Origin: Acidimicrobiia bacterium
GTDB lineage: Bacteria; Actinomycetota; Acidimicrobiia; Spongiisociales; UBA11373
Direction of reading: 5' to 3'
Assembly: GCA_040878325.1 (NCBI GenBank)
Contig: JBBDMM010000006.1
Location: 1-35,011, forward strand
DNA: 35,011 bases
Positions 2,019-6,698 of the stretch are shown piece by piece. Position 1 is the stretch's first letter; the number at the start of each line of letters is the position of its first letter. The position numbers were made by a program, and so were the translations under genes. The notes beneath the pieces are model-generated. The model saw only the letters and a list, made by a program, of their open reading frames with translations. It was not told where the DNA came from and did not search any database.

Positions 2019-2627
2019 TCACCCCGGATCCGACGGGCTCTCGATCTGAACGAGATCCGTCCCGTGCGAGTGGTGGTGGAGTCGTTCATGGCGCGCCTCG
2101 GCCTCCGCGGCCGCCGCCCGCGTCTGGGCGACGACAGCGGGGAGCACGGTGAGGATGGCCACGGTGCAAAGCACTCCGATGACAATCAGCCCGAGGAAAG
2201 GAATGGCCTCCCAGCCAAGCGTTCGGGAATACTCAAAGATGGTCGGCGACATCGCCGCGGCGTGACCCAGCGCGGCGGCGGCGGCCGCGAGGTCGATCGC
2301 CACGTGAAGCCCGCTCGGCGGGCTCTCGATCTGCCCGAAGCAGCCGCACGATGTCTCGCCCCGACGAATCAATGCCATCACAACCGCGGCGAACGCCAGG
2401 TAAGCGATACCCACCGCGATCGCAGGAACCGGGCCGGGTGCGGACAAGCCGGCGGCTCCAACCGCTATCTCGGCCGACCCGATGAGCCTGCCGATCCACC
2501 GGGGCACTCTCATGCCGAGTGTCTGCACCGCGCCCGCCACCCCGGCGGGTTGCACGACCTTGAAGGCGCCCGACACGATCAACACCCCGCAGGCGATGCC
2601 GAAGGCCCCGATGAAGGTTGCAGTCAC
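2019..2627 (-). CDS. MauE/DoxX-family redox-associated membrane protein
   Basis: Several TM helices, SGAFK motif, EIAVG, SCGCFG motif typical of MauE; leaderless GTG start. Confidence 0.85.
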   Translation of the reverse strand: MTATFIGAFGIACGVLIVSGAFKVVQPAGVAGAVQTLGMRVPRWIGRLIGSAEIAVGAAGLSAPGPVPAIAVGIAYLAFAAVVMALIRRGETSCGCFGQIESPPSGLHVAIDLAAAAAALGHAAAMSPTIFEYSRTLGWEAIPFLGLIVIGVLCTVAILTVLPAVVAQTRAAAAEAEARHERLHHHSHGTDLVQIESPSDPG

Positions 2628-2654: not shown

Positions 2655-3419
2655 CTAGCGGGGCCGCAACCGCAGCTTCGACTGCGGGTGCACCCACCCC
2701 TCCATCTCCTCGGCCGCGAACCCTCGCTCTCCGGCCAGCCGCACCAGCATCTCGAGCGGATAGAAGTAGTCCTCTCGTAGCGTGCCCCAGTAGCGGCCGT
2801 CGGCGCTCTTGTTGTACGTGAGGTCGAAGAACCCGTCTTCTCGAATCACCCGGCGAACGCCCTTCAGTGCCGCCTCCACGATCTCGATCGGTGTGTGAGA
2901 GAAGACGCTGTGAGCATGGACGACGTCGAAGTGGCCGTCGGGGAGGGCCTTGAAGGACATGTCGTTGACGATCATCAGGTAAGGGCGCTTGGCCACGAGC
3001 CCCTGCTCCGCCAGGGTGTCCTGAGCGGCGAGAAGGATCTCGGGTGATATGTCGACCCCGGTGTAGGCGCCCTCCCCGAGGAACTCGATGAAGCGCCAGC
3101 CGGCACGAAGATTGCCGCACCCGATCTCGAGCATGCGATGGTCGGGACGCAATCCGCGGTCGCGAAGGTAGATGAACTGCCGATTGCCCAGCTCGAGCCA
3201 CGCCTCGCGATCCTCGGTGCCGACCGCGCCATCGGGCGACTTGCGCACCACGTCGTCGGCCATCACCCGGCGGTAGAAGGAGATGTGATCGCCACCGGCC
3301 GACTGCGAGATTCTGCGGTTCCGGCGGACGCGCACCAGGTACCGCCAGGCGGCCTTCGGATTCTTGATCCCTTTCCCCACCTTGCCGATGAGGCTGGTCG
3401 GCTTCTTCTGTTCCGGCAC
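2655..3419 (-). CDS. Class I SAM-dependent methyltransferase
   Basis: LEIGCG motif I, YTGVDIS, FDVVHAHSVFSH; start placed at GTG 3419, 6 nt after a TACCCT -10. Confidence 0.88.
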   Translation of the reverse strand: MPEQKKPTSLIGKVGKGIKNPKAAWRYLVRVRRNRRISQSAGGDHISFYRRVMADDVVRKSPDGAVGTEDREAWLELGNRQFIYLRDRGLRPDHRMLEIGCGNLRAGWRFIEFLGEGAYTGVDISPEILLAAQDTLAEQGLVAKRPYLMIVNDMSFKALPDGHFDVVHAHSVFSHTPIEIVEAALKGVRRVIREDGFFDLTYNKSADGRYWGTLREDYFYPLEMLVRLAGERGFAAEEMEGWVHPQSKLRLRPR

Positions 3420-3464
3420 CCGGTCAGGGTACCGAAGGCGACCTGTCGCGAGCACCCTCGGGAC

Positions 3465-3923
3465 TCAGGCGGGGGTCACCTCGAGCGAGTCGAGCAGGGC
3501 GGCGAGGAGCGGAACGGACCGTGACCGCAACCGATGGGCGCCAACGACTGCGTAGAGACTGAATGCTCGATCCCCCACATGGAAGAAGTGCTGTGTGCCC
3601 GTCTGGCCGGAGGCGGGGCCCATCACGGCATCCTGGCTCAGGCTCTCGGAATCGATCTTCGGCACCCCCGACGCTGCAAAGAGACGCTTGCCCGCGGCGT
3701 CGGACCCGTATTCGATCACGGCCAGGAACACATCCATCAAGCGCATGTTCTGCACCATCTCATGCCCGAAGTCGGACCGTTCACGCGGGAGCCAGAAGTT
3801 CGCCGCATGAACGATCGCCGGAGCATCGGCCGAGTAGCGACCCGTCTCGTCCGGCCGGCTGAAGATCTCGACGTCGAAGCCCACCGGAGCCTCGATCGTG
3901 ATACCGAGGTTGCTGATCCTCAT
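3465..3923 (-). CDS. Hypothetical protein (152 aa) coupled to the Mau-like cluster
   Basis: ATG at 3923 overlaps the upstream stop (ATGA); MRISNLGITIEAPVGFDVEI...HAANF...SDFG; globular-looking sequence. Confidence 0.75.
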   Translation of the reverse strand: MRISNLGITIEAPVGFDVEIFSRPDETGRYSADAPAIVHAANFWLPRERSDFGHEMVQNMRLMDVFLAVIEYGSDAAGKRLFAASGVPKIDSESLSQDAVMGPASGQTGTQHFFHVGDRAFSLYAVVGAHRLRSRSVPLLAALLDSLEVTPA

Positions 3924-4597
3924 GGTCTGACCCAACCCAGCAACACGACGAGCGCCGCCGCGATCGGACCGACGACAGCGACCGCGTTGGCTGCGGGGCC
4001 GAGTTTCGCCATGCGCCGGAAATAGCTCCGCAGGGCGGCAGGATCCCTTATCCCGCCGACTGTGAGGAGCGCCGACGCCCTGACCAGCCCGAACCAAGCG
4101 CCCACGATCAATCCGCCGACAGGGGAGCCGCCGAGGACCACCAGGAGCCACAAGGCGTAGATCGACGCCGTCTTCACGAATGTCATCACGCCCGTACCGA
4201 GTTGGAATCCAAACCCGCCGCCATAGACCCAGGTTCGATATCGGTTCAGCCAGGTCTCGTCGACTTGCCGCTCGAGCGAGGGTACGGGCACGTGCCACAG
4301 ATCGAGGAGGGCCGACACGATCAGAACCGCGATCACGGACCAGACCGCGAAGGAGTCCGAGATGCTCCAGAGCGATGCGACTCCGGCTCCGATGACTCCG
4401 AGGGCTGCACCCATCAGCGCGCCACCAAGGGTCGAGCCGACGACGTAGTACGTCGCCGTCGTTCCCCATCGGTTCCCTCTCGTCCGCTCACCGAGCGGAT
4501 GGATGCTGGAAAGCATCGACTCTCCTCAGGGCGACCAGTGGCTACGAATGGCCGCGGTCACGGCCACCAGCGCGGCGGACACCAGGGCAGGATTCAT
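3920..4597 (-). CDS. MauF/CcdA-like multi-pass membrane protein with in-frame UGA at codon 24 (probable selenocysteine), 225 aa
   Basis: ATG 4597 overlaps the upstream stop (ATGA) with SD GAGGAAGGGGG; MNPALVSAALVAVTAAIRSHWSP-UGA-GESMLSSI continues in frame into ORF 3920..4516; RQV..W and GFQLGTG motifs, multiple TM helices. Confidence 0.75.
4483..4499 (-). promoter_or_regulatory. Candidate bacterial SECIS hairpin
   Basis: mRNA UCCGCUC-GGU-GAGCGGA; the apical GGU loop starts 33 nt after the UGA (4526-4528). Confidence 0.5.
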
Positions 4598-5325
4598 TCG
4601 CCCCCTTCCTCGACGTCTTGGGCTCGGTTCGCGAGAAGACTTGGATGGTCGGGACTGATGCCGGCGGCCGCGAGTTCTTCGTCGGCGCGGTCGAGCCGGT
4701 CGGAGGTGCTTCCGCCCCGGGTGGCCCGGTTGAGCAGCCCACCGTCGGCCGCCGCCTGCGCCATCAACGACTCGAGTTGGCGCCAGTTGGCCGCGGCGCC
4801 CTCTCCGGCGATCTGGCCGCTGGGGCCGTCGACGAGGACGAAGTAGGGAGTGATGGGCACGCCGTAGTGATCCCACGCCTCGGTCGACATCACGGTGGTC
4901 ATCCGGCGCGGTGCCTTCGCCGCGATCGCCGCCGGGCTCTCGGCCTCGGGACCCTTGGTGACGATCACCAGGTGGGTGTCCTCGCCTGGCATTGCCAGCT
5001 CTTCCCGGCCAAAGGCCTCCCAGAAGTTCGCGCAGGTCAGACAGCCGGATGAAAGGAAGGCGAGCATCGTCGTATGCCGCGCGCCCACGACGCCCACCAT
5101 TCGTTGCGAACCCTCGGGGGTGATCCCGACGATGTCGGCGGCGGCCAGGCTGTCGGTGGTTCGCCGGGGCAACGGGCGCGGCACGGCAGTCGCGTCAGCC
5201 TCGTCGAGTTCGATGCCCAGGTCGCGCAGCGCGCGGAGTATCTCGCCGTGGCTACGCAATAGACCGATCACCAGCACGGCGAGCAGCAGGACCACCACAG
5301 CCTCGACGATGACCAAGGCCGTCAC
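4594..5325 (-). CDS. MauD-like membrane-anchored thioredoxin-fold protein
   Basis: N-terminal TM then LLRSHGEIL, FLSSGCLTC (CxxC), YGVPITPYFVLVDG (cis-Pro loop); GTGA overlap with the upstream stop. Confidence 0.85.
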   Translation of the reverse strand: MTALVIVEAVVVLLLAVLVIGLLRSHGEILRALRDLGIELDEADATAVPRPLPRRTTDSLAAADIVGITPEGSQRMVGVVGARHTTMLAFLSSGCLTCANFWEAFGREELAMPGEDTHLVIVTKGPEAESPAAIAAKAPRRMTTVMSTEAWDHYGVPITPYFVLVDGPSGQIAGEGAAANWRQLESLMAQAAADGGLLNRATRGGSTSDRLDRADEELAAAGISPDHPSLLANRAQDVEEGGE

Positions 5326-6698
5326 TTGCGCGGCACTTTCCGGCCCCAAACGGCTACCAGATCGGTCGCCCTTCCGAACTCGAACACGGTGGTCTGGTCG
5401 AGCCACCAATCCCTTCGAATGTGCCAGTGCTCACCGACGACCAGGCCCGGGCCATCGATGCCGTCACCGTCCCAGTCACCCACCACCGGCCTGCCGCCAG
5501 GAATCCCGAACTCGAACCGGACATCCTCCGACCCCGGCCCGTGTGGGTTGCGCAACAGCCAGGTGTCTCCCCTCACCACCCCCAGGGTGGCGGTGCCATC
5601 GCCATTCCAGTCCCCGACAACCGGCACATCGCCTTCCCGGCCAAAGTTGATCGTGTCGTAGATGGGATTCGGGCCGAGCGACCGCCGCAGCTTCCAGACA
5701 CCGGCGCGGAACGTGCCGATCTCATCGATCCCATCCCCGTTGAAGTCGCCAACGACCGGAGTCTCTCCGTGGATCCCGAACTGGAGGATCAGGTTCGCGC
5801 CTCCCGCATTGTTCGTGTTCCGCAGGTACCAGTTCATCGGCTGTCCCGGAGTTCCACCCGAGGCGGCTTCCTTCACCACCCCAACGGTACGCCGGCGTTT
5901 GCCGTCCCAACTGCCGAAGACGGCGAGGTCGCCCACGGCACCGAATCTGAACCTTCGCACCTTGGACTTCAACCGGGGACCCTTCCGCAGCCTGATCTGA
6001 TTGCCGCGTTGCCCCGCAAACCGGGCGTGAATCGGCTCGCGCTCGTGGAGGCAGGGCCGGTCGTGGAAGGTGGTGTCGGGGGAGAACAGCACGGGTCCCG
6101 CCGCACAGTCGGGGTCCCAAATCCACGGCGGGCTGCAGGTGACATAGCGGCACACCACGGCGCCGAGGTAAGGGATGTCATCGTTGCACTGGCCGTAGCG
6201 GAAGCGGGTGCAGGCTGTCTTCCGGTGGTCGCAGCGGTCGTTGCCGCAGCCGCAGTCGAAGTCGTGGCATGCGGCGCCACAGGTTCCGTCGCTGTCGTTG
6301 ACCTTGGTGCACCCGAGCTCGCACGTGGCGTTGCAGTCGATGTAGTAGCGGGGCTGCCGAACACCCTGCACGTCGCACAGCCCGGCCCCATCGGCGCGCC
6401 ACCAGCCGCCCGGCACGGTGCCCGGCGGGCATGTGTTGCCGGTCTCCGGGTGGATGGCGCAGCAGAACTCGGTCCACCCGGAACAGCAAAGGTCTCCACA
6501 GTCGCAGTTGCCCGGCGAGAGGGTCGAACAAGTGGCGCATAACGATCGCGAGGCAACGCCATACGCGGTTCTCGGCTCGAACAGGAACCGCTGGGGCGCA
6601 ACGGCGAGCGCGGTGCCGACCATGGCGGCCCTGGACAGGAACCCCCGCCTGCTCACGCGACGAGCGGTGTAGCCGACAGACTTCTGGAGCAGACTCAC
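5322..6698 (-). CDS. Tat-exported Cys-rich protein (methylamine dehydrogenase light chain/MauA-like) fused to FG-GAP/VCBS-like repeats
   Basis: SRRGFL Tat motif; 24 Cys in the N-half with CPPGT...WW...YYIDC; C-half has 4 FG..GD.PVVGDW.GDG repeats and no Cys. Confidence 0.8.
   Translation of the reverse strand: MSLLQKSVGYTARRVSRRGFLSRAAMVGTALAVAPQRFLFEPRTAYGVASRSLCATCSTLSPGNCDCGDLCCSGWTEFCCAIHPETGNTCPPGTVPGGWWRADGAGLCDVQGVRQPRYYIDCNATCELGCTKVNDSDGTCGAACHDFDCGCGNDRCDHRKTACTRFRYGQCNDDIPYLGAVVCRYVTCSPPWIWDPDCAAGPVLFSPDTTFHDRPCLHEREPIHARFAGQRGNQIRLRKGPRLKSKVRRFRFGAVGDLAVFGSWDGKRRRTVGVVKEAASGGTPGQPMNWYLRNTNNAGGANLILQFGIHGETPVVGDFNGDGIDEIGTFRAGVWKLRRSLGPNPIYDTINFGREGDVPVVGDWNGDGTATLGVVRGDTWLLRNPHGPGSEDVRFEFGIPGGRPVVGDWDGDGIDGPGLVVGEHWHIRRDWWLDQTTVFEFGRATDLVAVWGRKVPRK

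Follow-up and report, generated by a model that had tools for sequence, protein, structure and literature searches.

A candidate selenocysteine-containing membrane protein distantly related to CcdA/DsbD, encoded across an in-frame UGA codon in Actinomycetota

The gene and its in-frame UGA codon

The subject of this analysis is a putative selenoprotein gene in a 35,011-nt stretch of DNA of an Acidimicrobiia bacterium (GenBank assembly GCA_040878325.1, contig JBBDMM010000006.1, positions 1 to 35,011 of the forward strand), referred to below as the window. The gene is located on the minus strand (4597..3920) and comprises 225 codons and a stop; its predicted product has approximately six transmembrane helices. 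The ATG start codon (4597-4595) overlaps the TGA stop codon of the upstream gene (ATGA). The first 23 codons, which specify mostly hydrophobic residues, end with AAIRSHWSP and are followed by an in-frame TGA (codon 24; 4528-4526, minus strand), placed between WSP and GESMLSS, which is the putative selenocysteine (Sec) codon. Beyond it, the same frame continues as GESMLSSIHPLGER... up to a TGA stop at 3922-3920, and the junction reads SHWSP-U-GESMLSSIHPLGER. The read-through protein contains no Cys besides the recoded position. In gene calls, the codon of Met28 (4514..4516, minus strand) is the start of a truncated product of 198 aa. This codon is preceded by the sequence GGAGAG, and in subfamily 1 of the protein family described below a Shine-Dalgarno-like GGNGAR sequence lies 5 nt before the ATG.

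An earlier note on this DNA, made by a model from the letters alone, had already pointed out the split gene, the overlapping start at ATG 4597, the in-frame TGA and the lack of further Cys residues, and had suggested that the UGA encodes Sec. The coordinates that it gave proved correct, as did its description of the read-through product. The features by which the Sec assignment was to be judged (homologs with WSPCG at this site, the recurrence of the UGA in related genomes, two downstream hairpins, the Sec genes of the host, and a TGA without a listed difference in other contigs) were all found, as set out in this and the following section.

A database search returned 172 relatives of the protein. 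The closest 22 (57-100% identity) are all 195-198 aa in length, and all the public calls among them begin at Met28. When short and longer relatives were aligned, the 12 short forms all started exactly at Met28 (MLSSIHPLGER), whereas the longer ones (223-297 aa) read WSPCG in 11 out of 11 cases, with Cys in the column of the UGA. In a later alignment, W-S-P-C-G was invariant in 59/59 full-length database homologs. Since the full-length homologs carry Cys at this position and the short forms begin at Met28, the latter are best explained as calls truncated at an unrecognized UGA. A gene-caller start at Met28 thus misannotates the gene, with the loss of the first transmembrane helix (TM1) and of the sole redox residue.

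The recurrence of the UGA was inspected at the level of the order and of the phylum. When the genomes of the order, 201 in number, were searched in all six frames, 79 of them were found to contain the family (69 with TGA forms, 9 with Cys forms and one with a C-terminal fragment only), while in the phylum sample it was present in 77 of 401 genomes, with an in-frame TGA in 65 of 79 match rows. These tallies, like those for selA, CcdA and the flavoprotein given below, take in unpublished genomes (G004, G016, G196 and nine in the phylum sample). Eighteen phylum-level loci were fetched, of which 16 are TGA forms. TGA occupies the homologous codon in all of the 46 TGA-form loci inspected (30/30 order-level and 16/16 phylum-level), and a Cys codon (TGC or TGT) stands in the same column in the 10 Cys-form loci. 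One of the 30 order-level loci (L043) comes from an unpublished genome, and no claim is made on it alone. The 46 TGA loci span many genera and families, with protein identities of 27-86%, and show no drift in the reading frame or in the distance from the UGA to Met28. In the 30 order-level loci the codon is preceded by (W/G)-S-P and followed by G-E-S-M-L. The distant subfamily 2 (27-34% identity), which reads F-(S/G)-P-U-G-L-S-M-V-E-T, has also kept the UGA. All of the 65 family members aligned, the Cys forms included, have Met at position 28.

The region upstream of the UGA was found to be conserved as a coding sequence. In the triplets TGG-TCN-CCN, codon positions 1 and 2 are fixed and position 3 varies, and the same frame encodes a conserved, hydrophobic TM1 peptide. 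From this pattern we conclude that the N-terminal piece is translated and selected as part of the same protein. Public contigs from four runs were also compared with the window, and none of the 40 listed differences (of 68) falls at 4526-4528. In the same comparison, many foreign contigs from the four metagenome runs aligned solely to positions 4484-4537 (54 nt, comprising W-S-P, the UGA and both hairpins), where contig depth rises up to approximately 30-fold above that of the rest of the gene. At the DNA level, no other part of the gene is as conserved as this segment.

The family is large. When 1.84 billion cluster representatives were searched with a profile, 3350 members were obtained at E <= 0.001, of which 551 reach E <= 1e-30. 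The best 150 clusters include 69 full-length Cys forms (xxxCGxSM), 60 that start at M(L/V)xx(I/L)xP, and 21 others, among which approximately nine Cys-form variants and four further Met-start variants could be recognized by eye. In a tree of 55 rows (45 Sec and 10 Cys forms), built from the residues after the site only and with L043 left out, three changes between Sec and Cys are needed, at least two of which are forced by well-supported branches. The rows were picked as best matches to a Sec form, and the ancestral state is therefore not readable from this tree.

Hairpins downstream of the UGA and the selenocysteine machinery

Two hairpins follow the UGA at the distances given in the earlier note. 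Hairpin 1 (4517-4502, minus strand; GAUGCU-UUCC-AGCAUC) has a 6-bp stem and a 4-nt loop and begins 8 nt past the UGA. Hairpin 2 (4499-4483, minus strand; UCCGCUC-GGU-GAGCGGA) has a 7-bp stem, and its GGU loop starts 33 nt past the UGA. In bacterial selenocysteine insertion sequence (SECIS) elements, as described for bSECISearch, the usual spacing of the loop is 16-37 nt from the UGA. With its invariant G-rich loop at this typical distance, hairpin 2 is the best SECIS candidate of the two, judging from its sequence; hairpin 1 is probably a helper hairpin.

The evidence for the hairpins is comparative. In the 29 order-level TGA forms, 98.4% of the base-pair cells in both helices are paired, compared with 30-46% when the partner is slid. 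For the 45 TGA forms of the order and phylum (572 cells), the value is 94.2%, compared with 84.4% in shuffles (reached by 0/500) and 37-47% in the slid controls. Two-sided changes were detected in these 45 sequences at 6 of the 13 pairs; compensatory cells number 43, with 11.6 expected, and none of 500 shuffles attained the covariation score. In hairpin 1, 98.9% of the cells are paired, and pair 28-35 occurs both as C-G (35 sequences) and as G-C (nine sequences). In hairpin 2, two-sided changes affect pairs 45-55, 46-54 and 48-52, while pair 42-58 is C-G in 14, U-A in 8 and U-G in 2 of the 29 order-level forms (24, 8 and 4, respectively, in the count that takes in phylum-level forms).

The sequences of the stems vary between the subfamilies, while their positions are constant; helix 1 is the clearest example. 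Helix 1 is GAUGCU/AGCAUC (encoding Leu and Ser) in subfamily 1 and GAUGGU/ACCAUC (Val and Thr) in subfamily 2; thus, the stem survives, since both amino acids change together. Helix 2 takes the forms CCGCUC-GGN-GAGCGG, CUCCCC-GGUC-GGGGAG and CCCCGUG-GUC-YACGGGG, depending on the clade. The hairpin pair was not found in any of the 10 Cys-form loci examined. Three of these keep the peptide PLGE(R/K), but with codons that are unable to form helix 2. One Cys-form locus, L073, has an unrelated GC-rich hairpin nearby. A genome-wide scan for a TGA followed by a hairpin gave 34 candidates and missed the gene described here; its output is not a census of the selenoproteome.

The genome encodes the complete set of Sec genes that was searched for: selA (409 bits), selB (289 bits) and selD (381 bits), each above the curated cut-off, and a tRNA-Sec with the anticodon UCA. 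The selA and selB genes lie side by side on the contig of the window. TGA is the ordinary stop codon of both the candidate gene and its neighbor, so that no genome-wide change of the code is involved. Within the order, selA was detected in 62 of the 69 genomes with TGA forms, and six of the seven that lack it are 54-74% complete (for G154, G170 and G182, its absence was deduced from their not being among the listed positives). Since selA occurs in 175 of the 201 genomes, most of those with Cys forms among them, its presence is consistent with Sec decoding but does not discriminate. No Sec-type formate dehydrogenase was found in the genome (the best match to TIGR01553 scored 40.9 bits and contains no stop), and selD has no in-frame stop; thus, the usual anchor selenoproteins do not explain why the Sec machinery has been kept. 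On the basis of the Cys alignment, the recurrence of the codon, the covariation of the hairpins and this machinery, the reading of UGA-24 as Sec is strongly supported.

Two further observations concern the decoding apparatus and its possible substrates in this genome. A second candidate selenoprotein, a class-I flavoprotein disulfide reductase, is encoded on another contig (G000:C16:200223-201638, plus strand, corresponding to L102:624-2039). Its in-frame TGA, at C16:200346, occupies the first Cys position of the redox motif GGT-C-xNxGC-xP. Its best NCBIfam matches (FAD-containing oxidoreductase, MerA and lipoamide dehydrogenase) are all below the cut-off. The TGA is shared with a genome of the same genus (G100; 98% identity), and relatives with 35-39% identity have no stop; it could be either Sec or a shared nonsense mutation. 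A UxxxxC flavoprotein disulfide reductase was not seen in the table of a 2026 review of prokaryotic selenoproteins (PMC13188914). The genome also contains a tRNA of 90 nt (G000:C2:139699-139788, plus strand, corresponding to L013:1501-1590) that has a long variable arm and the anticodon CCA; against the tRNA-Sec model of Rfam, for which the gathering score is 47, it reaches 50.8 bits. It occurs in addition to a normal 75-nt tRNA-Trp(CCA) and to full sets of Leu and Ser tRNAs, and this type-II-like tRNA would read UGG.

Relationships of the protein and its gene neighborhood

Library searches place the family at the margin of the CcdA/DsbD membrane domains. Among 65 family members, 11 match DsbD_2 (PF13386) at E <= 0.01 and four match DsbD_TM (PF02683). 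The member L075, with TM1 restored, scores 33.1 on PF13386, i.e. over the cut-off of 24.9, and for L058 the alignment to PF02683 begins at position 3 of the profile. We also compared the family, using hhalign, with a profile built from the canonical CcdA proteins of the order, in which the cysteines of SPC and WTPC are invariant. In this alignment SPC is matched by the WSP-C/U of the family, and SMMS by the SMLS that comes next. The second conserved Cys is absent from the family, both in this comparison and in the other alignments; the Cys of the CcdA WTPC motif falls in a 2-residue gap. In NCBIfam, the window protein has no match at E <= 0.1, and neither do P0039, L060 and L063. In an AlphaFold2 (AF2) model (mean predicted local confidence, pLDDT, 93.9; predicted TM-score, pTM, 0.90), TM1 is packed into the helical bundle at a pLDDT of approximately 95. 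The Pfam hits and the hhalign alignment point to the predicted protein being a distant relative of the CcdA/DsbD membrane domain, unnamed in the libraries searched, with a single redox residue. The proposal of a CcdA/DsbD-type redox protein, made in the earlier note, is supported as regards distant kinship, and falls short in that only one redox residue is present, unlike in CcdA.

The same note had described the candidate as the membrane protein of a Mau cluster. Its identity as MauE was rejected: the protein does not match PF07291 (E <= 0.1), it has no Cys besides the Sec, and a separate gene of the window (2019-2627) encodes the MauE-family protein.

The genes surrounding the candidate form a string on the minus strand in the following order: (i) a gene for a Tat (twin-arginine translocation) protein (5322..6698), (ii) a gene for a membrane-anchored CxxC protein (4594..5409), (iii) the candidate selenoprotein gene, (iv) a gene for a conserved 152-aa protein (3465..3923), (v) a gene for a class I SAM-dependent methyltransferase (2655..3455) and (vi) the gene for the true MauE-family membrane protein (2019..2627). 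The Tat protein carries a twin-arginine signal, 24 Cys within residues 54-216, and then FG-GAP-like repeats; its Cys-rich region has no Pfam family even at E <= 10. Located two genes upstream of the candidate, it is a probable client and would correspond to the disulfide-rich exported client that had been predicted. The CxxC protein, whose start codon is uncertain, has an N-terminal anchor and the pair C123 and C126. The CxxC domain agrees with the thioredoxin of the earlier note; the likeness to MauD, however, is weak (24 bits, with a cut-off of 189). The 152-aa protein contains no Cys, the ATGA at its start overlaps the stop codon of the candidate gene, and a search of the ESM Atlas with it returned unnamed Actinomycetota clusters alone. 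The MauE-family protein (PF07291) has an invariant C-G-C motif (C94 and C96).

This arrangement is widely conserved. In the loci of 29 relatives, inspected with 1.5-kb flanks, synteny is preserved for the CxxC gene in 28, for the 152-aa gene in all 29 and for the Cys-rich gene in 26; contig ends or short flanks account for the misses. In more distant genomes MauE is clustered with the family, and in four loci of subfamily 2 (L061:2360-3709, L062:2229-3773, L063:2518-3732 and L065:2576-3790) the protein, of 405-515 aa, has a C-terminal extension with C-G-C. The extension is MauE according to Pfam in both loci that were scanned, L063 and L065 (E 1e-20 and 2e-18, respectively). Such a fusion is a Rosetta-stone link, at the level of predicted proteins, between the two membrane proteins. 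A complex prediction for a Cys-form orthologue and the neighboring MauE of one genome gave a score of 0.00, which counts neither way.

Proposed function, alternatives and comparison with known systems

It is highly probable, in our judgment, that the gene encodes a 225-residue membrane selenoprotein related to CcdA/DsbD, in which UGA-24 is decoded as Sec and which would carry out Sec-based thiol exchange with its partners. The codon would be read by the SelA/SelB/SelD/tRNA-Sec system of the genome, with hairpin 2 (loop GG(U), 33 nt past the UGA) directing the decoding and the conserved hairpin 1 before it assisting. The family would have kept the Ser-Pro-Cys redox residue of TM1, in this case as Sec, and lost the Cys of TM4. 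The thiols with which the selenol at the end of TM1 may exchange would be those of MauE (C-G-C), of the MauD-like protein (CxxC) or of both. Redox equivalents would in this manner cross the membrane, and disulfides of the co-encoded, Tat-exported 24-Cys protein would be formed, repaired or isomerized. We infer the redox-relay role, its partners and client, and the direction in which electrons would flow, from the sequences and the gene order.

Several results weigh against this interpretation. On DsbD_2 the window protein itself scores 20.9 bits, below the cut-off of 24.9. The hhalign match to CcdA is weak (probability 22%, E 9.6e-4), and, although in agreement with the Pfam hits, it is to be taken as a lead and falls short of proof. 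Fold searches gave no convincing solved relative: the Foldseek match to 5vkv has a probability of 0.63, a TM-score of 0.36 and an E-value of 0.29, and the best VIA result (Z 6.5) is to halves of major facilitator superfamily (MFS) proteins. A sequence search of the PDB with the family profile gave spurious GAPDH matches alone (E 0.034). Taken singly, the hairpin sequence of the window has a predicted fold that does not exceed chance (z = -0.92, matched by 33 of 200 shuffles), and an Rfam scan of positions 4300-4700 yielded no relevant match, only a chance one to Cyano-2 (E 3.4). One TGA-form genome, G012, which is 98% complete and whose locus (L026) has the TGA and both hairpins, lacks a detectable selA and a convincing selB; unbinned contigs are the likeliest cause, with a genuine exception as the alternative. 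Finally, the relay mechanism is conjecture, because one redox residue cannot run the two-cysteine cycle of CcdA.

A different reading of the UGA has to be considered in view of the GGAGAG before Met28, which could serve as a Shine-Dalgarno site and allow some termination and re-initiation. In its full form, the UGA terminates a 23-residue leader, a 198-residue protein is re-initiated at Met28, and the hairpins serve coupling or attenuation. The GGNGAR of subfamily 1 and the public calls starting at Met28 in the closest entries fit this scheme; any stop-aware gene caller, however, would yield the same starts. The Cys forms are continuous reading frames with the same TM1 and an invariant Cys, and Met28 is not a start signal, since it is equally invariant in them. 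In subfamily 2 the UGA and the hairpins are retained, although the place of the GGNGAR is taken there by GGCCTC, a sequence unlike a Shine-Dalgarno site. The constant frame and UGA-to-Met distance in the 46 loci, and the packing of TM1 into the bundle in the AF2 model, also speak against re-initiation, which we regard as very improbable. The probability that the TGA is a nonsense mutation, a pseudogene or an assembly error of a single genome is lower still, and practically negligible: nothing beyond the presence of the stop codon favors it. This caveat, raised in the earlier note, is refuted by the recurrence of the TGA in 46 loci of many genera and families; moreover, the listed differences of the contigs contain no alternative base at this codon, and purifying selection is strong on both sides of it.

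The Sec may also be real in a protein with another function, i.e. a transporter or binding site for soft metals or chalcogen compounds, in which Sec24 and Met28 act as ligands on one face of a short helix. The invariant Met28 lies one helical turn from the Sec in the AF2 model (helix 23-31), and a single redox residue would suit a binding site. The family DsbD_2 is itself broad and permease-like. For L075 there is a weak match to a model of the ArsG efflux permease (22 bits, with a cut-off of 200), and the Joint Genome Institute (JGI) labels some homologs as TauE/SafE exporters or MFS permeases. Metal transporters are, in addition, found among the known membrane selenoproteins (PMC13188914, Table 1). 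These names are, however, automatic, and the scores are below threshold. The tight and wide synteny with the CxxC protein and the 24-Cys exported protein, the clustering or fusion with MauE carrying the invariant CGC, and the hhalign placement of the Sec on the catalytic SPC of CcdA point instead to thiol chemistry, and we consider the transport function unlikely, without dismissing it.

Returning to the redox selenoprotein, a bolder extension can be formulated, for which we would claim only a minor chance. A single-selenol protein cannot cycle alone, and the C-G-C of MauE would supply the missing thiols. The CcdA-derived protein and MauE might thus constitute a new transmembrane module, a selenosulfide hetero-pair serving exported Cys-rich proteins, and this module may be among the main reasons for the retention of the Sec machinery by many aerobic Actinomycetota.

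The sequences almost certainly represent a widespread selenoprotein family of Actinomycetota that has been cut short by gene callers and is absent from the published list of selenoproteins (PMC13188914). Since gene callers stop at UGA, selenoproteins are found family by family. In public databases the Sec branch is truncated: approximately 40% of the best 150 clusters start right at the Met after the UGA. The truncated entries have lost the first membrane helix together with the only redox residue, and recognition of the family corrects their annotation. It also adds an integral-membrane, CcdA-like protein to a catalog composed mostly of soluble selenoproteins with a thioredoxin fold, and the natural switching between Sec and Cys within the family can be used to ask why selenium is preferred. 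The MauE/MauD-type accessory proteins, which are poorly understood, gain a conserved third partner and a testable candidate client.

Table 1 of the 2026 review lists 119 families of prokaryotic selenoproteins, none of which is a CcdA/DsbD_2-like membrane protein with a single Sec; those that come closest are TsoB, a Cu/Zn efflux permease, MerT and YeeE/YedE (PMC13188914). Literature searches combining selenoprotein with DsbD, CcdA, MauE, Acidimicrobiia or cytochrome c biogenesis revealed no paper describing the family. TsoB is a selenoprotein resembling a rhodanese/DsbD fusion (NF045694; motif UxxxxU) (PMC13188914). It resembles the present protein in being a selenoprotein with a DsbD-like membrane part, but it is fused to a rhodanese, contains two Sec residues instead of one and has another motif, and the window protein has no NCBIfam match. 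A preprint on deep-Sep reports a predicted selenoprotein group matching K07090, of unassigned function, in Actinomarina genomes (bioRxiv 10.64898/2026.04.03.716425), i.e. within the same class, Acidimicrobiia. The accessible text of that source gives no motif, SECIS element or gene context. The group may be a related family or the same one, in which case ours has possibly been listed already, though not described in that text. K07090 we take to be a TauE-like permease, which is the same automatic label as that given by JGI to some of the homologs.

The MauE/MauD pair (PF07291; TIGR02661) offers a comparison at the level of gene organization. In methylamine dehydrogenase (MADH) clusters, MauE and MauD accompany the disulfide-rich small subunit of MADH. 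The present locus is similar in that its gene for an exported Cys-rich protein is accompanied by a gene of the MauE family and by a CxxC gene with a weak likeness to MauD. It differs in that the candidate does not match MauE, the CxxC protein is far below the MauD cut-off, and the presumed client is an FG-GAP-repeat protein; Pfam and NCBIfam scans named no methylamine dehydrogenase subunit among the operon neighbors.

The closest parallel is with CcdA and the DsbD transmembrane domain (PF02683, PF13386). The features in common are (i) approximately six transmembrane helices, (ii) according to the weak hhalign alignment, Ser-Pro-Cys/Sec at the end of TM1, (iii) SM(L/M)S following it in the same alignment, and (iv) a gene adjoining that of a membrane-anchored, thioredoxin-like CxxC protein, just as CcdA is encoded beside ResA, TlpA or CcmG. 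A canonical two-Cys CcdA is encoded elsewhere in the same genome (C12:141078-141668). Unlike the CcdA proteins of the order, with their WTPC motif, the family is without a second catalytic Cys or any other conserved Cys and has marginal similarity to them, and its redox residue is Sec in approximately 40% of the best-scoring clusters.

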